DNA of 64,000 bases from Alphaproteobacteria bacterium. GTDB taxonomy: Bacteria > Pseudomonadota > Alphaproteobacteria > VGEJ01. The translations under genes were made by a program, and so were the position numbers. The notes beneath the pieces were generated by a model. It saw nothing but the letters and a program-made list of their open reading frames with translations, was not told the origin of the DNA and searched no databases. The stretch spans positions 457,484-521,483 of the forward strand of contig CBDFKF010000003.1 of the NCBI GenBank assembly GCA_965248765.1. The letters run 5' to 3'. This document shows, piece after piece, positions 700 through 22,932 of this stretch; the stretch's first letter is position 1, and each line of letters starts with the position of its first letter.

Positions 700-1488
700 A
701 TGGCGCATCCCAGCTTCAAGGACATGGCCCGCACGCGCGGCCCCAAGATCGGCACCGTAGTGCTCGAGTTCGACACGCCCGGTATCGGTCAGATCCTCAA
801 GGCCGCCGGCCTTGATTTCATCTTCCTCGACATGGAGCACTCGGGCTTCAGCATCTCTGACCTCAAGCGCACGCTGCGCTATACCCAGGCGGCAGAGATG
901 CCGGTGCTGGTGCGCGTCCCGTCCGACCGCTACGACCATATCGCGCGCGCCCTCGATGCCGGCGCCGATGCGCTCATGGTGCCGATGGTAGGCACGGTCG
1001 AGCAGGCCAAGCACATCATCGCGTGCGCCAAATACAGCCCCCAGGGCATGCGCGGCTTCGCACCCCAGGTCGCGCACGATCGCTACATGCCCGGCCCGAT
1101 CCTCAAGAAGATGCGCGCGGCCAACCGTCACACCTCAATCTGGGCCCAGATCGAAACGGCGGAGGGCGCGGCCAATGCGGATGGCATCGCCGCGGTGCCG
1201 GGGATCGATTGTTTATGGGTGGGCCACATGGACCTCAGCACCTCGCTCGGCATTCCCGGTCAGTACGACCGGCCCGAGGTGAAACAAGCCTTCCAGAGCG
1301 TGGTCACGGCAGCGAAAAAGGGTAGGAAGTTACTCGGCCGCATGGTGCAGGACGTGAAGGCGGGCGCCCGCGCCCATGCCGACGGCTTTAAATTCCTGGC
1401 CTATCACGTCGATGCGTGGGCACTGCATGAGTTCATGCAGGCCAACGTGGCGGCGATGCGGGCCCGCTGCCGTCGGCGCGCGGCGTGA
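700..1488 (+). CDS. HpcH/HpaI family aldolase (2-keto-3-deoxy-acid aldolase family)
   Basis: ORF 676..1488; internal ATG at 700 preceded by AAGGAGG; translation MAHPSFKDM...LDFIFLDMEHSGF...WAQIETAEG is typical of HpcH/HpaI aldolases. Confidence 0.75.
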   Translation: MAHPSFKDMARTRGPKIGTVVLEFDTPGIGQILKAAGLDFIFLDMEHSGFSISDLKRTLRYTQAAEMPVLVRVPSDRYDHIARALDAGADALMVPMVGTVEQAKHIIACAKYSPQGMRGFAPQVAHDRYMPGPILKKMRAANRHTSIWAQIETAEGAANADGIAAVPGIDCLWVGHMDLSTSLGIPGQYDRPEVKQAFQSVVTAAKKGRKLLGRMVQDVKAGARAHADGFKFLAYHVDAWALHEFMQANVAAMRARCRRRAA

Positions 1489-1519
1489 GTCGGCGCTCGT
1501 CGTCTCGCGGTTGGGCCGT

Positions 1520-2158
1520 TCAGTCGAGCCAGGCGCGCCAAGCGTCCCACGCGCTGATGCGCTCGGCCATCATGGCGTAGCCCGCGGTGGTCGGGTGTAC
1601 CGAGTCGCCCTTGGTGTGCTCTGCCGTCCAAGCGGGATCATCGATGAAAGCGGAGAACAGATCGAGGAACGGAACCTTGAGCTCGGCCGCGATCGCCTTG
1701 AAGGCATCGTTGGTCTCGCGGATGCGCTCGTTGGTGAACCAGAACTGGACGCCCATGATGGAATCGAGCGGCTGGTTGGTTTCATCGACCGGCACCTGAC
1801 CGACCCACAACGCTGGTTTCTGCCAGGCGAGCCCTTCCTCGACCATGGCGCGGGCATTGGCGGCGCTTTCCTCGGCCGGCAACTCGATCTTGCCGTCGAC
1901 CACGCGGGTGTCATTGGTACCGAAGTTGAAGACCAGATGACCGGGCAAGTGATCTGGCAAGCGCTGCTCGCACTCGGCGCGCCAGCGGGCGCGAATCTGT
2001 GCGGTGGTGTGGGCCCGAACTCCGAGGTTGTAGACGGTGATGTCATGGCCGCGGGCGCCCTCGGCGGCGGCGATCCGCGCCGGCCACCCCAGGCACTCCC
2101 CATCGCCGGTGCCGAGCGTGATCGAATCGCCTACGAAGCTGGTCACGAGAAACGTCAT
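1520..2158 (-). CDS. SGNH/GDSL family hydrolase (lipase/acylhydrolase-like), paralog 1
   Basis: Translation MTFLVTSFVGDSITLG...NFGTNDT...DSVHPT carries GDS(L) block I and DxxH block V; AAGGAGG precedes ATG at 2158. Confidence 0.7.
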   Translation of the reverse strand: MTFLVTSFVGDSITLGTGDGECLGWPARIAAAEGARGHDITVYNLGVRAHTTAQIRARWRAECEQRLPDHLPGHLVFNFGTNDTRVVDGKIELPAEESAANARAMVEEGLAWQKPALWVGQVPVDETNQPLDSIMGVQFWFTNERIRETNDAFKAIAAELKVPFLDLFSAFIDDPAWTAEHTKGDSVHPTTAGYAMMAERISAWDAWRAWLD

Positions 2159-2229
2159 AGCGGGCCTCCTTGACTGACGGGTGATCATACGCGGTCCCGC
2201 GCCCGAGGCTCTTGATTATCGTAGTGCGC

Positions 2230-2478
2230 CTAGTGTCTGGCGATGACGCCGAGCGAGGGCCAGTTGGGCATGGCATCGATGTTGCGCGAGCCGCACCGGG
2301 TGCAGCGGGTAATAGTCTTGACCTTAGGCACGGGGAAGCCAGGTCCAAGCCGAGCGAGCAACGCATCGATAGAAAGGATGGCGTGGTGACTGCAATCCTC
2401 ACACCACGCCCACATGTCGAGGTGCTCAGCACGAAGCTCAGCAAGCGTTGCCGGCGGCAGTTCTGCACGCGATTTCAT
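2230..2478 (-). CDS. small hypothetical protein with CxxC...CxxC zinc-ribbon-like motif
   Basis: 82-codon ORF MKSRAELPP...WCEDCSHH...CTRCGSR; sits immediately upstream of GDSL paralog 1 on same strand; an AT-rich patch lies upstream; no family recognised. Confidence 0.4.
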   Translation of the reverse strand: MKSRAELPPATLAELRAEHLDMWAWCEDCSHHAILSIDALLARLGPGFPVPKVKTITRCTRCGSRNIDAMPNWPSLGVIARH

Positions 2479-2628
2479 ACGACCGTCCGGCCGCTCTTCT
2501 ATCAGAAGAACATAAATAGAACAATAACTGTATACGACCACGGCCGCCGACGAGCGCTGCTCCGGCAGTCTCCAGCTCAGAGAACGGCGGCGGAACGCGC
2601 CCTTAAAGGACGCGCTCCGCCTCGCCAG

Positions 2629-2920
2629 TCAGACTTGGCCGACCGAGAGTTCCTCGAGCCGCGAACGATCGCGGATCTCGATGCTCCTTCGCCGTCGTTC
2701 GAGAACCCCGGCATTCTCAAGATTCGCGAGCGTGCGGCTCACCGTTTCACGGGTGGTGCCGCTGAAGCTCGCGATCTCAGCCTGGGTCCGCTTCGGGTAG
2801 ATGTGCCAGAAGCGGTTGTCCACCGGGTTCTGCTTCGCCAAGCGCAGCAGACCGAGGCAGATCCGACCCTTCGCATCAAGACTGTAGAGTTCCTGAATGC
2901 GTTCATAGCAGCACCAAGCC
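2629..2920 (-). pseudogene. Crp/Fnr family transcriptional regulator, C-terminal HTH fragment only (N-terminal cNMP-binding domain missing)
   Basis: Translation ...YERIQELYSLDAKGRICLGLLRLAKQNP...RTQAEIASFSGTTRETVSRTLANLENAGVLE is the Crp-family DNA-binding helix-turn-helix; reading frame opens with no upstream domain and abuts an IS256 transposase fragment. Confidence 0.6.
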
Positions 2921-3196
2921 GAGCCCGACGTGCTGGCCTATATGAGCTTCCCCAAGGAGCACCGCACCAAGCTCCACTCGACCAATCCCCTGGAGCGCCT
3001 CAACGGCGAGATCAAGCGCCGCACCAACGTCGTCGGCATCTTCCCCAACGAGGCCGCCATCACCCGACTGATCGGCGCTATCCTCGTGGAGCAGAACGAC
3101 GAATGGGCGGTGCAGAGGGCGCGCTACATGACCCTGGAAACCATCGCGCCGGTGAGCGACAATGCCCTCATCAAGATGCCTCCCGAGGCCGCTTGA
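2904..3196 (+). pseudogene. IS256-family transposase, C-terminal ~95 codon fragment (no start, N-terminal ~300 codons absent)
   Basis: Frame opens after a TAG at ~2901; translation EPDVLAYMSFPKEHRTKLHSTNPLERLNGEIKRRTNVVGIFPNEAAITRLIGAILVEQNDEW is the conserved IS256/mutator transposase tail. Confidence 0.7.
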
Positions 3197-3388
3197 GCGA
3201 TCCGGCTCAGCCCGCCGGACACCGCGACCCGCTCGCGGCTCTTACACCACGTCCCGGGACACGATCTCTTTCGGCAAGCCAGCGAAGATAAAAACACCTC
3301 CGACACTAGGCCTGATCGGAGGTGTAAGCGGTAACTCAACACTCCTCCTTTTGCGTGGTCTCATGGAAAGTCCTCCCTTCTCTACAAA

Positions 3389-3408
3389 CCCTGCGGCGTC
3401 CCGCAGGG
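3389..3408 (-). terminator. perfect 8 bp GC-rich hairpin (ccctgcgg-cgtc-ccgcaggg) ~115 nt downstream of GDSL paralog 2; candidate terminator or IS-remnant structure
   Basis: Inverted repeat read directly; followed on the minus strand by a partly U-rich tract (GGUUUGUAGAG). Confidence 0.35.
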
Positions 3409-3523
3409 GAGACCACGCTAGCATTCCTGCCGGCGTATGTTGTAACCAAATTGTCACAGCAACCTATGCGCGCGCCCGACGGCAATGAGCGGCTTGCCCT
3501 GGTCACTGCACAAAGTGCGCTGA

Positions 3524-4162
3524 CTAGTCGAGAAGAGCGCGCCAGGCCGGCCAGGCGGCGATGCGCTCGGCCATCATGGCGTAAGCGGGTGCCGTCGGAT
3601 GGATGCCGTCGCCTGAGGCGATGGCGGCGCGCCACGCGCCTTCGTCGACCAGCCCGGCGAAAAGATCGAGATAGGGCACTCCGATCTCAGCGGCGAGCGC
3701 TGCGTATGCAGCGTTGTAGTCGCCGATCCGGGAGTTGGTGTAGTCGTAGACGGCGCCAGTGAACGCGGTGATCGGCATCTTCGTCTCGTCGATCGGCGTC
3801 GGACCGATCCACATCGAGGGCTTCCAGTCCACAGCCTCGGCGAAGATGCCTCGCGCGGTTGCTACGGCTGCTTCGAGTGGAACGCGGATGCCGGCTCCCG
3901 CCTCCTCGGCGGTTTCGTTCAAGCCGAAGGCGAAGAGAAGAACCCCCATCACCCCATCCGGCAAACGGGCCGTGCACTCGGCACGCCAACGGGTGGCGAT
4001 CTCCACCCCGGTGTCGGCCCGTATGCCGATGTTGTAGAGGCCAGGGTCGTGGCCGCGGTCGGCCTCGATCCGAGCCAGACGTCCGCACCAGCCGAGCGCC
4101 TCGCCGTCGCCGCGGCCATGGGTGATCGAATCGCCCACGCAGCACGTCACCAGTGCAGTCAT
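3524..4162 (-). CDS. SGNH/GDSL family hydrolase, paralog 2 (~50% identical to paralog 1 by eye)
   Basis: MTALVTCCVGDSITHG...AFGLNET...DGIHPT...YAMMAERIAAWPAWRALLD aligns along its whole length with the 1520..2158 product; start ATG overlaps cca stop (ATGA). Confidence 0.7.
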   Translation of the reverse strand: MTALVTCCVGDSITHGRGDGEALGWCGRLARIEADRGHDPGLYNIGIRADTGVEIATRWRAECTARLPDGVMGVLLFAFGLNETAEEAGAGIRVPLEAAVATARGIFAEAVDWKPSMWIGPTPIDETKMPITAFTGAVYDYTNSRIGDYNAAYAALAAEIGVPYLDLFAGLVDEGAWRAAIASGDGIHPTAPAYAMMAERIAAWPAWRALLD

Positions 4163-5403
4163 GTAGTTTCCTTTTTGATCAATTGCTCAAGCCGTTCGAG
4201 GCAGGCGGCACGATCGGCGCGATAGTCGGTTTGCTGCCACCAGTCCTCGACCGCGCGCACGAGCCGGCCGACGTCCGGCCCCGGCGGCACGCCGCGGGCG
4301 AGGGTATCAGCGCCGCGCACCGGAAGCATCGGCGCCTCCCACGACGATGCTTCGGCCAGCAACGCGGGCCAGTCGTCGAAGTCCCGAGCCTCGGCCTGGG
4401 CTAGCAGAACGAGATCGACAAAGCGTTCCACGCCGAGGCGATAGAGCGCACGGCGGCGGGCACGTCGGTCCATGCCGACGAGACTGACGGGCAGCTCGGC
4501 CAGCACCTCCAGGCGCTCACGTTGGCGCGCCGATAGACGGAGCCGCTCCGCCACCGCGCGCGCGGCCGCAACATCGCTCCTGAGGAGCGCGGCCAGCCGG
4601 CGCTCAGCATCCGGTTCATCCTCGAGCTCGATCAGCTGCCGGAGGCGATCCCGACGGTCCGCCTCAGGCAGGATGACACCGAGGATGTCCGCCTCGGCCA
4701 TCTGGTCCACTACCTCCGCGGCGCGTGCACTCGCCAAGAGCCGCAGCAATTCCGCCGCGATCCGCTCGCCCGATAGCCGGCGCAGATCATCCGCGGCGGC
4801 GCTGCAGGCGGCGTACCCCGGCGCGTCGAGCGGACCGCGGCCGTACGAGGAATGAAACCGGAAGAACCGGAGGATGCGGAGCGCATCCTCCTTAATGCGC
4901 CGCGCCGGCTCACCGACGAAGCGAACACGGCCGGCCTTGAGGTCGGGGAGACCGCCGGTGGGATCGTAGAGCGTGCCATCAGGATCGCAGTAGATCGCGT
5001 TGATCGTCAGGTCGCGTCGCGCGGCATCCGCCTCCCAGTCATCGGTGAACGCGACCCGGGCACGGCGGCCAAAGGTCTCAACATCCTGTCGCAGGCTGGT
5101 GACCTCGGCCTGCCAATCGGCGATGACAACGGTGATCGTGCCGTGCTCGATGCCAGTCGGCACGGTCTTGATGCCCGCCGCCTCCAGCAAATGACGGGCG
5201 CGTTCGGGTTCGATCGGCGTCGCGATATCGATGTCCTTGATCTCGCGCCCGACAACGGAATCTCGGACGCAACCGCCCACGAAGCGCGTCGGACCGGCAG
5301 CGGCGAGCGCCGCCACGGTCGCCGTCGTTTCCGCTGCCGTCATCCACGGCAGGGGATCGATCTTTCCCGCGGGAGTCAAAATGGGGCGACCGCCCGTGAG
5401 CAC
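4159..5403 (-). CDS. cca: CCA tRNA nucleotidyltransferase (poly(A) polymerase / CCA-adding enzyme family)
   Basis: ...RFVGGCVRDSVVGREIKDIDIAT...EHGTITVV...RRDLTINAIY... is the head domain of class II nucleotidyltransferases with the CCA-enzyme C-terminal region; alternative start at 5343. Confidence 0.8.
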   Translation of the reverse strand: MLTGGRPILTPAGKIDPLPWMTAAETTATVAALAAAGPTRFVGGCVRDSVVGREIKDIDIATPIEPERARHLLEAAGIKTVPTGIEHGTITVVIADWQAEVTSLRQDVETFGRRARVAFTDDWEADAARRDLTINAIYCDPDGTLYDPTGGLPDLKAGRVRFVGEPARRIKEDALRILRFFRFHSSYGRGPLDAPGYAACSAAADDLRRLSGERIAAELLRLLASARAAEVVDQMAEADILGVILPEADRRDRLRQLIELEDEPDAERRLAALLRSDVAAARAVAERLRLSARQRERLEVLAELPVSLVGMDRRARRRALYRLGVERFVDLVLLAQAEARDFDDWPALLAEASSWEAPMLPVRGADTLARGVPPGPDVGRLVRAVEDWWQQTDYRADRAACLERLEQLIKKETT

Positions 5404-5416
5404 TCAGTTCGCGCGC

Positions 5417-5698
5417 TCACTCTGTCTCCGCGGGGATGACCTCACCATCCTCGCCAAGGCGCGGAGCGGTGTAGGTGCCGCCCGGCTCGAACCGGCCGAC
5501 CTGGCTCACGGCGAAGAACGAGATGATCATCAATACGAGCCCGGCAGTGGTCAACCAGACCAGCGGCGCATCACGCCACGACACCGCTCCCGCCGTGCCC
5601 ATCAGCCTGGCCCGGCGCCGCTCATACCAAAACCACAGCGCATAGACGATGAAGGGCAGAGCAAAAAATAGCCCGTGAAGCAGTATCTTTCTCAACAT
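5417..5698 (-). CDS. small hypothetical membrane protein (two predicted TM helices)
   Basis: 93 codons, MLRKILLHGLFFALPFIVYALWFWYERRR...; start overlaps nudL stop; co-oriented with cca. Confidence 0.45.
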   Translation of the reverse strand: MLRKILLHGLFFALPFIVYALWFWYERRRARLMGTAGAVSWRDAPLVWLTTAGLVLMIISFFAVSQVGRFEPGGTYTAPRLGEDGEVIPAETE

Positions 5699-6315
5699 CC
5701 GTCGGTGAGCTTGTCGTGGAGATTGACGAGCATGCCGGCCGTTGCGCCCCAGATCCGCCGGCCGTCGTAAGGCAGCACGTAAAACTGACGCTCGACGCCA
5801 CGAATGACCATCGTCTCGCGACGGTGGTTGTCGGCGTCGAGGACGAAAGCGAGCGGCACTTCGAACGCGTCGGCGACCTCGAAGGGATCGAGCCTCAAAT
5901 GGAGTTCGGGATCGACGATGCCGACCACCGGAGTTATGCGGAATCCGGTGCCGGTCTCGTAGATATCGAGACGACCGATCACCTCGACGTGGTGCGGCGC
6001 CAACCCGATCTCCTCTTCGGATTCACGAAGTGCGGTTGCGATCGGCCCGTCATCGTGAGGCTCCTCGCGACCACCCGGAAAACTGATCTGGCCGGCGTGG
6101 TCGCGAAGATGCTCGGTACGCTGGGTCAACAGCACCGTCATGCCGCCAGGCCGCGCCACCAACGGCACGAGCACGGCGGCCGCGGTGAATGAGAGACCCT
6201 TCCACGCCCCGGGATTGAGGTCATAATCGCCGCGGAGCCTGGCCAGCGCACGCTTTTCATCGATTCGCACCGCCTCGCCAACGGGATGAAGGCGCGATCT
6301 CAGGAGCGTCTGCAT
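5692..6315 (-). CDS. NUDIX hydrolase, CoA pyrophosphatase-like (NudL family)
   Basis: Nudix box GGREEPHDDGPIATALRESEEEIGL plus upstream LLTQRTEHLRDHAGQISFPGG characteristic of CoA pyrophosphatases; start chosen at MQTLL (6315). Confidence 0.75.
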   Translation of the reverse strand: MQTLLRSRLHPVGEAVRIDEKRALARLRGDYDLNPGAWKGLSFTAAAVLVPLVARPGGMTVLLTQRTEHLRDHAGQISFPGGREEPHDDGPIATALRESEEEIGLAPHHVEVIGRLDIYETGTGFRITPVVGIVDPELHLRLDPFEVADAFEVPLAFVLDADNHRRETMVIRGVERQFYVLPYDGRRIWGATAGMLVNLHDKLTDGC

Positions 6316-18711: not shown

Positions 18712-19122
18712 TCATCCTCCAAATAGAAAACTGTTGAGAAATCGCCCCGGCGCGAGCGCGAACACACCGGCGCTGATTAAGCCGATGTAGGTGCCGACCA
18801 TGAAGCCACGATGCGCGCGCCGGTTGCCGCGTCGGATGTAGATAATCGCACACGTCACGGCAAACAACGTCCACACCGAGATCAAGTGGATGACGCTCGG
18901 GCCGGCGCCCTGCCGGATGTCGAAGATCGCAAACGATGACATGGCGGCGAGCGCGACAAGCACGACCCAGACACGTCCTAGCGCTTTGTGAAGACGCGTT
19001 CCCTTGCGCAGCGCGAGAATGCTGCCACCGAGCACCAAAGCCGGCACCGCGGCGGCGAGGTGAACAGCGATCTCCGGACTCACGGCACGACCACCGCGGG
19101 TGTCACGGCCCCGGTGGACCAT
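18712..19122 (-). CDS. hypothetical integral membrane protein (start uncertain, probably internal GTG)
   Basis: Three or four hydrophobic helices (VWVVLVALAAMSSFAIFDI, VIHLISVWTLFAVTCAIIYI, FMVGTYIGLISAGVFALAP); annotated ATG would collide with divergent gene start at 19136. Confidence 0.45.
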   Translation of the reverse strand: MVHRGRDTRGGRAVSPEIAVHLAAAVPALVLGGSILALRKGTRLHKALGRVWVVLVALAAMSSFAIFDIRQGAGPSVIHLISVWTLFAVTCAIIYIRRGNRRAHRGFMVGTYIGLISAGVFALAPGRFLNSFLFGG

Positions 19123-20127: not shown

Positions 20128-20970
20128 TCAGGCCGCGGCGAGTTCGTGCCGCTTGGTATTGAGGCGGAAGAAGGCCCAGCCAAGCGTGGTGAGCCAACGA
20201 CCAAGACGGCTGCGCGGCCGTAAGCCGACCGCCCTCAGTGCCATCGCCAGCGCTTTGGCGAAGTGCTCATAGCGATAGAGGGGCATCGTCCGGCGAGCAT
20301 ACGCGCCGCCGTGGCGGCGGCGGTGATAGGGCTCAGAAAGACCGTTGCCGCAGTAGTACGCATAGGCGAGTTCATCGTCAGCACTCTCGGCGAGTCGGCC
20401 GACGACGACCTTGAGGCCGGCCCACACCCCCGGTTTCTCGACCGCACGGTAGCGCTTCATGTTGCTGTAGAAGAGCTTGAAGTGACGGTACTCATCGCCG
20501 GCGATGCGGTGACAGATGTGTCGGAGTACCGGCTCCTCGGCGGCATCGCGCATGGCGCTGTAGAACGAGCTGGTGGCGACCTCGACGATGCAGCGGGCGA
20601 TGAGCTCTTTGGTGCGCGTTCCACGCACCGACAGCCGCGCATCCAGCGGCAGAATATGGCCCGCTGTGTAACGTCTGAAGCTCCGCTCGAAATCGAAGGC
20701 GGGATCGGCGAGCTCGCACCAGCGGCGCAGCACGGCGCCATGCTGTATCTCTTCGATGCCCCAGGCCCGGGCCTCGGCCTGGAACGCTGAATCGCCGTCG
20801 AACACCGAACAGAGATACGTCACATAGTCGTCAGCGTGGTGTTCGACCAGGCAGGCACCCTTGACCGCCTTGAGCATCTCCGGATCGACCTTACTCGGAT
20901 CGAACCGATCCCAAGGGATCTCGTCGACCGACCAGTGCCCGCGCCCCGGCTTTCCCTGTTGCGTCGTCAT
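20128..20970 (-). CDS. ferritin-like diiron-carboxylate family protein, unknown function
   Basis: Two ExxH motifs (EEIQHG, DEYRH) in a helical ~280 aa protein; start chosen at MTTQQ. Confidence 0.5.
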   Translation of the reverse strand: MTTQQGKPGRGHWSVDEIPWDRFDPSKVDPEMLKAVKGACLVEHHADDYVTYLCSVFDGDSAFQAEARAWGIEEIQHGAVLRRWCELADPAFDFERSFRRYTAGHILPLDARLSVRGTRTKELIARCIVEVATSSFYSAMRDAAEEPVLRHICHRIAGDEYRHFKLFYSNMKRYRAVEKPGVWAGLKVVVGRLAESADDELAYAYYCGNGLSEPYHRRRHGGAYARRTMPLYRYEHFAKALAMALRAVGLRPRSRLGRWLTTLGWAFFRLNTKRHELAAA

Positions 20971-21057
20971 GAACTCACTGGAGATCCACGCCGCGCGCTG
21001 CGCCCCCAACCATCCCCTTCGCCGCTGGAGTGTAGCGGAAAGATCGATTCGCGCCAA

Positions 21058-21073
21058 GGCATCGACCAGCCGG
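21058..21073. repeat. direct repeat copy 1 (ggcatcgaccagccgg, preceded by shared a) flanking IS
   Basis: Identical 16-17 nt string recurs at 22470/22471..22486 immediately outside the IS inverted repeats. Confidence 0.7.
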
Positions 21074-22470
21074 TGTCACTAACACACGATATGTCCGGTT
21101 TATGTACCAGACGATCTGTCCGGATTTAGAAGCTCTCCAGGCTATGGAGGGTTTGGATGCGCCGGACAGAGCAGTTGCAGGGACTGAGATTGATGAAGTT
21201 CGAGGAGGTTTACGGCCGCACCCATCGGGGTTGCTTGAGCCAAGCCGAGGCGGCGGAGGTTCTCGGCGTTTCAGAGCGCACCTTCCGGCGCTGGCGCGAC
21301 CGCTATGAGGCGGACGGCGCGGAAGGGCTCTACGATCGCCGTCTGGGCCGGGTCTCGGCGCGGCGCGCGGCGGTCAACGAGGTGACGGCGCTGTTGGCGC
21401 TGTTCGACACCCGCTACTGGGACTTCACCGCCAAGCACTTCCACGAGAAGCTGGTCGCGGACTATGCCTTCAAGCGCAGCTACAACTGGGTGCGGCTGAG
21501 CTTGCAGGCCCATGGGCGAAGACGGGCGGCGCCCAGGCGCGGGGCGCACCGGCGCAAGCGGCCGCGCCGCGCGCTGCCCGGCATGATGCTGCATCAAGAC
21601 GGCTCAAGCCACGCGTGGGTCCCCGATCAGTGGTGGGACCTGATCGTCACCATGGACGACACCACCAGTGAGATCTACTCGGCCTTCTTCGTCGCCGAAG
21701 AGGGCACGATGTCGAGCTTTCAGGGGGTGTCCGAGGCGATCCGGGCCAAGGGGCTGTTCTGCTCGCTCTATGCCGACCGCGCCGGCCACTACTGGCACAC
21801 CCCTGAGGCCGGCGGCACGGTCGACAAGGACAATCCGACCCAGTTCGGCCGCGCCCTGGCCCAGCTCGGCATCGAGCTGATCCCGGCCTACTCGCCCGAG
21901 GCAAGGGGGCGCTCGGAACGCATGTTCGCCACCCTGCAGAAGCGCCTGCCCCAGGAGCTCAGGCTCGCCGGCATCACCGACATGGCCCAGGCCAACCGCT
22001 TCCTCAAGGAGCTCTACCTGCCAGGCCACAACGCCCGCTTCGCGGTGCCGCCGGAAGCCGAGGGCACCGCCTTCGTGCCCTTCGCCGGTACCCTCGACGA
22101 CATCCTCTGCGTGCAGCAGGAGCGCACCGTCTCCAACGACAACACCGTGCGCTACAAACGCCTGGTGCTGGCGATCCCGCCCGACCGCCATCGCCGCCAC
22201 TACGTCAAGGCAAGGGTCCGGGTCCACGAATACCCCGACCGCACCCTCGCCGTCTTCCATGGGCCGCGCTGCCTGGCCCGATACCAGGCCGACGGATCGC
22301 CCATCAACACAAGCCACAGACAGGCCGCGTGATCCGCTTCGACGCGACCGGCCAGTGGATAAGGGGACGGCCGCTCCGCGCCCGACCCCTTATCCACTGG
22401 CCCAACAACCACAACTGAAGCGGTCAATTCATATGGTACATAAACCGGTCAATTCAGTTTGTTCTCGACA
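21074..22470 (+). mobile_element. intact insertion sequence, ISNCY-type (IS1202-group-like), ~1.4 kb, imperfect ~45 bp terminal inverted repeats beginning TGTC
   Basis: IRL tgtcactaacacacgatatgtccggtttatgtaccagacgatctgtccgg vs reverse-complement of right end tgtcgagaacaaactgaattgaccggtttatgtaccatatgaattgaccgc (15 bp perfect core ccggtttatgtacca); single transposase ORF inside; flanked by direct repeats. Confidence 0.8.
21157..22332 (+). CDS. ISNCY-family DDE transposase (HTH + integrase-core domain)
   Basis: N-terminal HTH (LSQAEAAEVLGVSERTFRRWRDRY) and DDE region (LHQDGSSHAW...VTMDDTTSEIYSAFFV...YADRAGHY...GRSERMFATLQKRL) resembling IS1202-group transposases. Confidence 0.85.
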   Translation: MRRTEQLQGLRLMKFEEVYGRTHRGCLSQAEAAEVLGVSERTFRRWRDRYEADGAEGLYDRRLGRVSARRAAVNEVTALLALFDTRYWDFTAKHFHEKLVADYAFKRSYNWVRLSLQAHGRRRAAPRRGAHRRKRPRRALPGMMLHQDGSSHAWVPDQWWDLIVTMDDTTSEIYSAFFVAEEGTMSSFQGVSEAIRAKGLFCSLYADRAGHYWHTPEAGGTVDKDNPTQFGRALAQLGIELIPAYSPEARGRSERMFATLQKRLPQELRLAGITDMAQANRFLKELYLPGHNARFAVPPEAEGTAFVPFAGTLDDILCVQQERTVSNDNTVRYKRLVLAIPPDRHRRHYVKARVRVHEYPDRTLAVFHGPRCLARYQADGSPINTSHRQAA

Positions 22471-22486
22471 GGCATCGACCAGCCGG
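22471..22486. repeat. direct repeat copy 2 flanking IS (putative target-site duplication)
   Basis: See copy 1. Confidence 0.7.
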
Positions 22487-22530
22487 CGATGCGCTTTGCG
22501 AGGACGCTGTTGAAGTGTTGAGCCCCGCCG

Positions 22531-22931
22531 TCAGCTGGCGACGCGGAGCATTTCTTCGAAGAGCTGGATCGCCACCTCGGCGCGATGGCGATCGGTATCG
22601 GTTTCGGCGTCTTCGAGGTCTTCGCGGACGTTCTGAAGGCGCTGCTCCAGGTCGGCGCGGTCAAGTTCCTCGACCGGGACCGACTCCTCGGCAAGCACCG
22701 TGCAGCGCGTCGGCGTGACCTCGCAGAAACCACCCGAGAGGAAGATGCGGCGAACCTCGGCTCCCTCATTGTGAATTTCCAGAACACCCGGGCGCACTAC
22801 CGCCATCACCGGCGCATGGTCGACCAGGACGCCGAAGTCACCCTCGGTGCCTGGCACCACAACCATCTCGACCTCTTCAGAAGCGACAAGCCGCTCGGGC
22901 GAGACCAGCTCGAAGTGGACGGCATCTGCCA

Positions 22932-22932
<1 letters not shown>
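22531..22932 (-). CDS. atpC: F0F1 ATP synthase subunit epsilon
   Basis: MADAVHFELVSPERLVASEEVEMVVVPGTEGDFGVL... and position after atpD. Confidence 0.9.

Follow-up and report, generated by a model that had tools for sequence, protein, structure and literature searches.

A probable recent insertion of an ISTde1-type insertion sequence between atpC and a ferritin-like gene in an uncultured alphaproteobacterium

Empty target sites in related strains

The DNA analysed here (the window) is a 64-kb stretch of contig CBDFKF010000003.1 from an uncultured, high-GC alphaproteobacterium. Window positions 21058-22486 consist of the 16-bp sequence GGCATCGACCAGCCGG, a 1,397-bp insertion sequence (IS) and a second copy of GGCATCGACCAGCCGG. 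We conclude, with a probability of about 0.9, that this IS is an intact copy of an IS1202-family element of the ISTde1 type, and that it was recently transposed between atpC and a ferritin-like gene. Taken as a whole, the insertion is ordinary and well explained. The element, its inverted repeats on the left (IRL) and right (IRR) and its single gene are as follows.

21058-21073, no strand: left copy of the target-site duplication, GGCATCGACCAGCCGG, 16 bp
21074-22470, plus strand: complete insertion sequence, 1,397 bp, termini 5'-TGT...ACA-3'
21074-21123, plus strand: IRL, with TGT, AACA and two TG(T/A)CCG repeats (21092-21097 and 21117-21122) around a 15-bp core
21146-21151, plus strand: Shine-Dalgarno-like GGAGGG, 6 nt 5' of the transposase ATG, read from the sequence
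21157-22332, plus strand: transposase gene, 391 aa, with a helix-turn-helix (HTH) domain at residues ~25-65 and an Asp-Asp-Glu (DDE) core of D148, D207 and E254
22421-22470, minus strand: IRR, reading TGTCGAGAACA... on the minus strand, with two TGACCG repeats
22471-22486, no strand: right copy of the target-site duplication, 16 bp

Close relatives without the element were found through the ferritin-like protein. Database entry P0121 is 100% identical to this protein, and look-ups of two members of its 90% cluster (P0241 and P0242) led to six metagenome contigs, all with the gene order atpHAGDC-ferritin-like. Five of the six (L082-L085 and L087) lack the element and carry the target in single copy, between flanks that match those of the window. 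Read along the atp sense strand, the empty site is ...GCGCATCG/CCGGCTGGTCGATGCC/TTGGCGCGAATCG..., the right flank also being written TTGGCGCG. Over 2-6 kb to either side, the five contigs and the window share 99.2-99.5% identity. When aligned to the window, the contigs break off at 22470 and 21073/21075 and overlap by 17-19 nt in the query, as expected because one target copy matches both duplicates. These break points, together with an alignment of the ends with those of 79 related copies, set the boundaries of the element. Since the sister strains hold single-copy empty sites, the flanking repeat is a genuine target-site duplication, made by an insertion that is both recent and polymorphic. 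The original prediction, a short note made from the window sequence, had proposed a true duplication and a recent insertion and had called for a comparison with empty sites. This comparison bore it out: a single GGCATCGACCAGCCGG with matching flanks was present in all five contigs, and the duplication was not there before the insertion. A metagenome scan for the reconstructed empty site gave no match. A metagenome scan for the IRL junction gave no match either, and its pattern, with an extra base between CCGG and TGTC, fits the 17-bp version only.

A repeat search returned a 17-nt direct repeat, AGGCATCGACCAGCCGG, at 21057-21073 and 22470-22486 (100% identical). All related copies end in ...GACA, and in those with a base other than A on the left flank (L007, L026, L029, L061 and L065) the duplication begins directly after ACA; therefore A22470 is the last base of the element. 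A21057 is host DNA and is seen in the empty sites. The duplication here thus reads as 16 bp, not 17. A direct repeat of 16-17 bp, present once on each flank, had been predicted; the exact repeat abutting the inverted-repeat ends stands, whereas the longer of the two lengths does not. The 16-mer has exactly two occurrences in the 64 kb, and shuffled sequences gave a mean of 0.2 matches when up to two mismatches were allowed.

The element begins with TGTCACTAACAC... at 21074 and ends with ...GTTCTCGACA at 22470 (TGTCAC...CGACA). Its GC content is 65.8% (window, 65.5%), and no further copy lies in the window. Imperfect terminal inverted repeats that start with TGTC and share a 15-bp core had been predicted, and all of these parts were found in place. 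IRL and IRR are ~50 bp long and imperfect, both start with TGTC, and they are identical at 36 of 51 aligned positions; the perfect 15-bp inverted-repeat core, CCGGTTTATGTACCA, has two occurrences in the window, which are the two ends. Each end has two TG(T/A)CCG(G) motifs with a spacing of 25 bp. The direct repeat CGGTCAATTCA at 22418-22431 and 22443-22456 coincides with the TGACCG repeats of IRR. Positions 19-36 of IRL and IRR (TG.CCGG..TATGTACCA) are invariant across five variants, and TGT is at positions 1-3. The TG(T/A)CCG motifs are probably transposase-binding sites.

Other differences were seen among the sister contigs. In L086 (ENA ERZ25067264, 5x coverage), positions 4900-6050 hold empty-site sequence interleaved with fragments of an IS variant. 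The fragments are ~91% identical to the IS of the window, the flanks are 98-99% identical to the window, and IRL adjoins the same target (GGCATCGACCAGCCGGT/TGTCGG). In L086 a second variant may have hit the atpC site independently, or the contig may be misassembled, and we treat it as a lead only. L082-L085 carry other mobile DNA nearby that is absent from the window (near ~18130 and ~18848-19020), namely IS21 (istA/istB), IS1595-type transposases and two phage-type integrases. At window positions 18848-18897, the sister strains and the window differ by a 49-bp indel. On these contigs, the population is highly polymorphic in IS content.

Transposase, family assignment and intactness

The only open reading frame (ORF) with transposase homology in the 1,397 bp is 21157-22332. 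Its product matched the NCBIfam model NF033594 ('ISNCY family transposase') over residues 18-369 with 346.5 bits (cutoff 250), in agreement with the predicted ISNCY type; the IS1202 group of ISNCY was raised to the IS1202 family by Siguier et al. (bioRxiv 10.1101/2022.12.17.520857) and Harmer et al. (PMC10132070). Members of this family are recognised in the literature by a DDE triad with Q at position E+7 and a further two conserved D residues, and by TGT ends with, near position 20 of the inverted repeat, a second conserved block (bioRxiv 10.1101/2022.12.17.520857; PMC10132070). A tblastn search against plasmids gave transposases annotated as members of the ISLad2 (33.3% identity), ISKpn21 (32.6%) and ISEsa1 (30.8%) families, covering 79-89% of the protein with E values of 1e-26 to 2e-31. 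In an alignment with ISKpn21 and ISLad2, residues D148, D167-D168 (in the sequence TMDDTTS), D207, E254 and Q261 (E254+7) were invariant. Among 25 homologues from two clades the signature residues were also invariant, except D148 and Q261, each of which was at least 90% conserved. Homology, Q at E+7, the two extra D residues, TGT...ACA ends with a block at ~20, and a single ORF in an element of 1.32-1.99 kb are thus all found here, as in the IS1202 family.

Both papers split the family by duplication length, which for Siguier et al. (bioRxiv 10.1101/2022.12.17.520857) results in ISAba32 (5-6 bp), ISTde1 (16-17 bp) and IS1202 (27-28 bp) subgroups. ISTde1 itself is 1,327 bp long, encodes a 394-aa transposase without a C-terminal domain and has a 17-bp duplication; ISCARN53 is 1,404 bp long and has a 16-bp duplication (PMC10132070). 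The window transposase ends ~65-75 residues short of the C-termini of ISKpn21 and ISLad2, and in the stretch that separates the second D from the E it has 3-4 extra residues relative to them (TPEAGGTVDKDN vs. NKHATG---GDG). With its 16-bp duplication (15/16-17 bp in the subgroup) and its short, 391-aa transposase without the C-terminal domain, the element fits the ISTde1 type in duplication length, protein length and end sequences. A duplication of 16-17 bp is typical of the ISTde1 subgroup and not exceptional.

The transposase shows the modal length (391 aa) of more than 8,000 homologues and is identical at 389 of 391 residues to a database protein, P0001. The 90% cluster of P0001 comprises 18 variants; since most of these lie on a single 2.94-Mb contig, many copies must be present in a very close genome. 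At neither end is there a change at a position invariant in the five variants (TGT, AACA, TG.CCGG..TATGTACCA and the second TG.CCG). The element is thus judged intact, with no sign of decay in its sequence. The original prediction of an intact IS agrees with the full-length transposase, its near identity to a multi-copy relative and the retention of all catalytic residues. Exact-protein look-ups for the window transposase, AtpC, P0001, P0121 and P0243 gave no record.

Several points weigh against this explanation. Pfam matched HTH domains only (HTH_28/29/23, residues ~25-65) and gave no match to rve. The AlphaFold model, built on a shallow alignment, had a mean pLDDT of 59, with values below 50 over residues 125-260. 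The 3-4-residue subgroup indel, as aligned with ISKpn21 and ISLad2, is shorter than the published 5-10 residues, and ISTde1 itself was compared through its published description. One of the two differences from P0001, N74, is private to the window copy (the relatives have D), outside the catalytic core. The Pfam result does confirm the predicted transposase with an HTH domain. The predicted DDE integrase core is supported by the NCBIfam match, by the catalytic residues and weakly by the fold search, and is left without a match by Pfam rve. Foldseek best matches for the low-confidence model were IstA, TnsB, MuA and retroviral integrases (E = 3e-9 to 1e-3). This evidence was counted as weak because the AlphaFold model is poor in the core; the predicted structure agrees weakly with an arrangement of HTH, RNase H-fold and beta-barrel. 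A sequence search of the PDB with the transposase gave no relevant match.

It is next to impossible that the flanking 16-mer is no target-site duplication but an older repeated host sequence (e.g., from a repeat or terminator). The 16-mer does lie within a small inverted repeat of the native spacer, and a repeat-rich spacer is conceivable; however, the five sister contigs, which hold it exactly once with identical flanks, refute this explanation, the 16-mer occurs nowhere else in the window, and 44 related copies at unrelated sites likewise have exact flanking repeats of 16-18 bp. Membership in another DDE family, IS481 or IS3, is very unlikely. IS481 elements share TGT ends and a distant HTH and DDE homology with the window element (E = 5e-27, residues 27-269), and IS1202 transposases have been published as distantly related to IS481 and IS3, with TGT ends in common. 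However, the score of the IS481 model was 95.1 bits, far under its cutoff of 224, and that of the IS3 model was 15.7 bits (cutoff 160), as compared with 346.5 (cutoff 250) for the ISNCY_2 model; Q in place of K/R at E+7 and the extra DD are signatures of the IS1202 family, and the nearest named relatives are ISLad2, ISKpn21 and ISEsa1. We also regard it as quite improbable that the element is a decaying, immobile relic with a transposase pseudogene or defective ends. The private N74, the lack of an rve match and the presence of one copy only in the 64-kb window would suit a relic. The ORF is full-length, as in most of the >8,000 homologues, and 99% identical to multi-copy relatives, all catalytic and signature residues are present, the ends keep all positions invariant in the relatives, the duplication has no mismatch, and ~99% identical strains are polymorphic at the site; all of these findings argue against a relic.

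Related copies

A scan of one genome per species yielded 430 transposase relatives, of which the best 80 were kept (L002-L081; 79-96% amino acid identity). Copy ends were located by alignment to the inverted repeats of the window element, and 79 relatives were analysed. Most of the relatives kept came from long-read metagenome-assembled genomes (MAGs) assigned to Alphaproteobacteria and Paracoccaceae, and dozens of copies were present in some of these. In the 79 relatives and the window, exact duplications were found at 45 sites, of which 18 had 16 bp, 24 had 17 bp and 3 had 18 bp. Members of a second clade, 53% identical, have TGTCG...CCGACA ends and duplications of 16-17 bp. Judged from these copies, the 16-17 bp duplication is a property of the whole group.

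Swapped flanks were seen in several copies that have no duplication. Two copies on contig CBDEFM010000002.1, L022 (4.03 Mb) and L054 (1.67 Mb), have reciprocally swapped flanking 17-mers, which indicates recombination between IS copies with inversion of ~2.4 Mb. Recombination between copies explains the copies that lack duplications. L021 (CBDHFB010000011.1, from a MAG labelled Dehalococcoidia, Chloroflexota) has a copy that is 84% identical at the protein level and has no flanking duplication; it may reflect horizontal spread, or a binning or assembly contaminant.

Target choice

The 45 targets with exact duplications were reconstructed, all oriented by the transposase gene. A short motif precedes the duplicated segment on the IRL side:

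21053-21057, plus strand: target-site motif GCCAA, host DNA abutting the duplicated segment 5', on the side of IRL, and seen in the empty sites too

Across the 45 sites the preferred bases were G at -5 (29 sites), T or G at -4 (33), C at -3 (40), A at -2 (36) and A at -1 (41), and the first duplicated base was C or G in 40. CAA occupied positions -3 to -1 in 31 of the 45 sites, including the window (binomial p ~3e-46), whereas the mirror-image TTG past the duplication was found in 1. The window site, GCCAA/GGCATC..., conforms to the (G)(T)CAA consensus. Of 30 copies without an exact duplication, 11 also had CAA at the correct distance, as did 6 of 7 insertions in the second clade and L090, a truncated copy on a Mesorhizobium plasmid that is 53% identical.

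The length of the duplication was related to the 17th base of the target. This base was a pyrimidine in all 18 of the 16-bp events, as compared with 16 of 27 longer events (Fisher p = 0.0014), and a purine at this position always went with a duplication of at least 17 bp. Ten 16-bp cases with T at the 17th base are formally ambiguous with the first T of the IS.

A tandem arrangement was found in L043 (positions 981-3838; Paracoccaceae MAG, CBDEFR010000009.1), in which two head-to-tail IS copies are 99.43% identical, with 8 differences. The layout is GTCAA-X(16)-IS-X(16)-T-IS-X(17), with three target copies. L043 is consistent with two successive motif-anchored insertions; unequal crossing-over or an assembly error would be alternatives.

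Two earlier accounts bear on these observations. Harmer et al. (PMC10132070) found no conserved target sequence for members with long duplications, and targeting was reported for ISAba32 alone by Siguier et al. (bioRxiv 10.1101/2022.12.17.520857). A search of the literature available to us for later work on the targets of long-duplication members found nothing. The oriented, CAA-anchored preference seen in these alignments thus goes beyond the published accounts that we found.

We lean towards the view that ISTde1-type elements are oriented, motif-anchored inserters, in which the cut joined to IRR would lie 3' of (G)(T)CAA and the other cut 16 or 17 bp away. The 16/17-bp distance would act as a 'ruler' of one and a half turns, and repeated hits would explain L043 and possibly L086. 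Two points tell against this view. The motif, at ~5 bits, cannot alone explain the choice of a site in a genome of ~4 Mb, and it therefore represents a local preference, not a unique address. In addition, a few MAGs account for many of the 45 sites, and segment duplication could inflate the counts, though the flanks differ.

Proposed mechanism

In the proposed mechanism, the transposase would bind both ends, and the two 3'-OH ends (...ACA-3') would attack target strands 16-17 bp apart, as in established DDE chemistry; gap repair would then produce the duplication. Insertion would be oriented, as the comparison of sites supports. On the transposase-gene strand, the top-strand nick directly 3' of CAA would be joined to the 3'-OH of IRR, and the bottom-strand nick, 16 or 17 bp downstream, would be joined to IRL. 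Because the motif survives insertion, the same site could be hit again.

A stagger of 16-17 bp would correspond to ~5-6 bp plus one helical turn. The staggers of the three subgroups (5-6, 16-17 and 27-28 bp) differ by ~11 bp, which suggests that the subgroups share the same active-site geometry with zero, one or two extra turns. No such helical-turn account came up in a text search of the preprint of Siguier et al. (bioRxiv 10.1101/2022.12.17.520857). Copy-out-paste-in transposition has been proposed for the family from ISKpn21 circles.

Comparison with known systems

The published ISTde1 subgroup comprises ISTde1, ISCARN53, ISCARN62, ISCARN63 and others (bioRxiv 10.1101/2022.12.17.520857; PMC10132070). 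The window element resembles these in its 16-17 bp type of duplication, its 5'-TGT ends, a length in the range of ~1.33-1.40 kb, a DDE triad with Q at E+7 together with a further two conserved D residues, and the lack of dif/xrs targeting. The length of ISCARN53 (1,404 bp) is that of most relatives of the window element. Like ISTde1 (394 aa), the element has a single short transposase (391 aa) without a C-terminal domain of the ISAjo2/ISKpn21 type. It differs from the subgroup of Siguier et al. in its alphaproteobacterial host, a class not listed there; the subgroup indel, set against its published description, is only partly recognisable. Unlike the long-duplication members in both papers, for which no conserved target was described, the elements analysed here show the oriented (G)(T)CAA motif.

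The ISAba32/ISAjo2 subgroup (ISKpn21, ISLad2 and ISAjo2) has transposases that are 31-33% identical over ~86-90%, with the same catalytic signature and TGT...ACA ends. The second internal repeat at each end of the window element is reminiscent of the extra internal transposase-binding site of ISAjo2. Oriented insertion is also common to both, with a recognised sequence adjoining the duplication on the IRL side (xrs there, a 5-bp sequence here), as, probably, is repeated insertion at one site, giving tandem copies. The ISAba32/ISAjo2 elements differ, however, in their duplications of 3-6 bp, their recognition of XerC/D sites (dif, pdif) and an extra C-terminal domain of 65-75 aa (441-467 aa in total), and they are mostly plasmid-borne in Gammaproteobacteria. 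Membership in this subgroup, which has 3-6 bp duplications 5 bp from a XerC/D site, was rejected; the duplication here is 16 bp and no ATAA-N6-TTAT lies within 80 bp.

More distant likenesses exist to Tn7 TnsB, Mu MuA and IS21 IstA, which share the TGT...ACA ends, several internal binding repeats and, according to the predicted structure, the HTH, RNase H-fold DDE and beta-barrel arrangement. Harmer et al. modelled TnpAjo2 on TnsB (PMC10132070). Unlike Tn7, Mu and IS21, the window element has a single ORF, with no TnsA, TnsC, TnsD or IstB, and a stagger of 16-17 rather than 5 bp. A Tn7-like transposon was rejected, as one transposase-homologous ORF and no accessory genes were found in the 1,397 bp.

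For the genome at hand, this insertion would be of little importance, being one more apparently active IS. The relatives reveal a large and apparently very active alphaproteobacterial clade of ISTde1-type elements (>8,000 homologous proteins; 430 loci in species-representative genomes), and the host range is therefore wider than in the family-defining survey. The CAA-anchored preference is a modest side finding of interest to IS specialists. If confirmed, the oriented motif would provide a handle on how the 16-17-bp stagger is set and on the differences of about one turn among the three subgroups. Because it is polymorphic among ~99% identical strains, the insertion is usable as a strain marker, and it may have polarity on the ferritin-like gene.

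Neighbouring genes and the insertion site

The element lies between two genes of the minus strand:

20128-20970, minus strand: ferritin-like/acyl-ACP-desaturase-like gene (Pfam PF03405, a weak match of 25.7 bits vs. a threshold of 22.7)
22531-22932, minus strand: atpC, ATP synthase epsilon (Pfam PF02823, E = 8.6e-28), last gene of atpHAGDC

Homologues of the ferritin-like gene are named 'ferritin-like domain-containing protein', and its start is called differently among assemblies (280 or 293 aa, the 293-aa start being at 21009). The IS ends (22470) 60 nt from the atpC stop (22531), and its start (21074) is 103 nt from the ferritin-like ATG at 20970, or 64 nt from the 21009 start. These distances match the predicted ~60 and ~100 bp. 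The native spacer between the two genes is 108-147 bp long. A native inverted repeat, GCATCG-N9-CGATGC (6-bp stem), overlaps the target (empty site in L083, ~5930-5955; window 21060-21080 and 22471-22492).

Scanning of 20850-22650 on both strands for a sigma-70-type promoter consensus gave none. A terminator scan found none at the junctions and two chance-level terminator-like sites, both inside the IS. Outward-facing -35-like hexamers (TCGACA and GTGACA) are present at the two termini; when junction promoters were considered, with a terminal hexamer and a spacer of 16-17 bp, no -10 sequence was found in the flanks or IRL. Scanning the whole window against Rfam and for tRNA genes produced no match.

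It is highly improbable that the site was chosen for a structure or function of the DNA, i.e., as a hairpin or terminator past atpC, or as a dif/Xer site as in the ISAba32 subgroup. The target does overlap a 6-bp-stem inverted repeat just downstream of atpC, and relatives in the ISAba32 subgroup do target XerC/D sites. However, the 45 reconstructed targets, with a mean z of +0.74 (-0.56 for the unremarkable window site), fold less well than control windows of the same loci, and hairpin or terminator targeting was rejected because the targets are less structured than the controls; no terminator-like site was found at the junctions. Targeting of dif/Xer sites was rejected likewise, as no dif-like core (ATAA-N6-TTAT, one mismatch allowed) lies within 80 bp of either end, and both family papers report no xrs targeting for long-duplication members. 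The original prediction had raised effects on atp operon termination or on the ferritin-like gene, which are speculative. A regulatory effect of the insertion, by blocking atp read-through into the ferritin-like gene or by driving or silencing that gene, is doubtful. The geometry would fit it: both genes are on the minus strand, with 60 nt from the atpC stop to the IS and 103 nt from the IS to the ferritin-like ATG. In addition, the palindromic stem-loop of the IS is very stable and would form in the minus-strand transcript too, and the -35-like hexamers point outward. Against such an effect, neither a sigma-70-like promoter nor an intrinsic terminator was detected in the region scanned, the flanks have no suitable -10 after the terminal hexamers, and 103 nt of native DNA are kept upstream of the ferritin-like ATG. 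The native hairpin is also preserved: because the duplication is long, its atpC-proximal copy retains the complete hairpin.

Stem-loop downstream of the transposase gene

One further feature lies within the element:

22350-22402, plus strand: stem-loop between the transposase stop codon and IRR, returned as a 25-nt hairpin in the repeat search

Its predicted folding energy is -61.8 kcal/mol (z = -5.8). Across ten variants, 22 pairs were predicted for the stem-loop, 6 of them with compensatory changes. Homologues of the stem-loop are present in L012, L014, L015, L021, L041, L064, L075, L077 and L079, and in L004, L005, L061 and L066 it is precisely deleted. Candidate roles are those of a terminator or stabiliser of the transposase transcript, or of a barrier to read-through.

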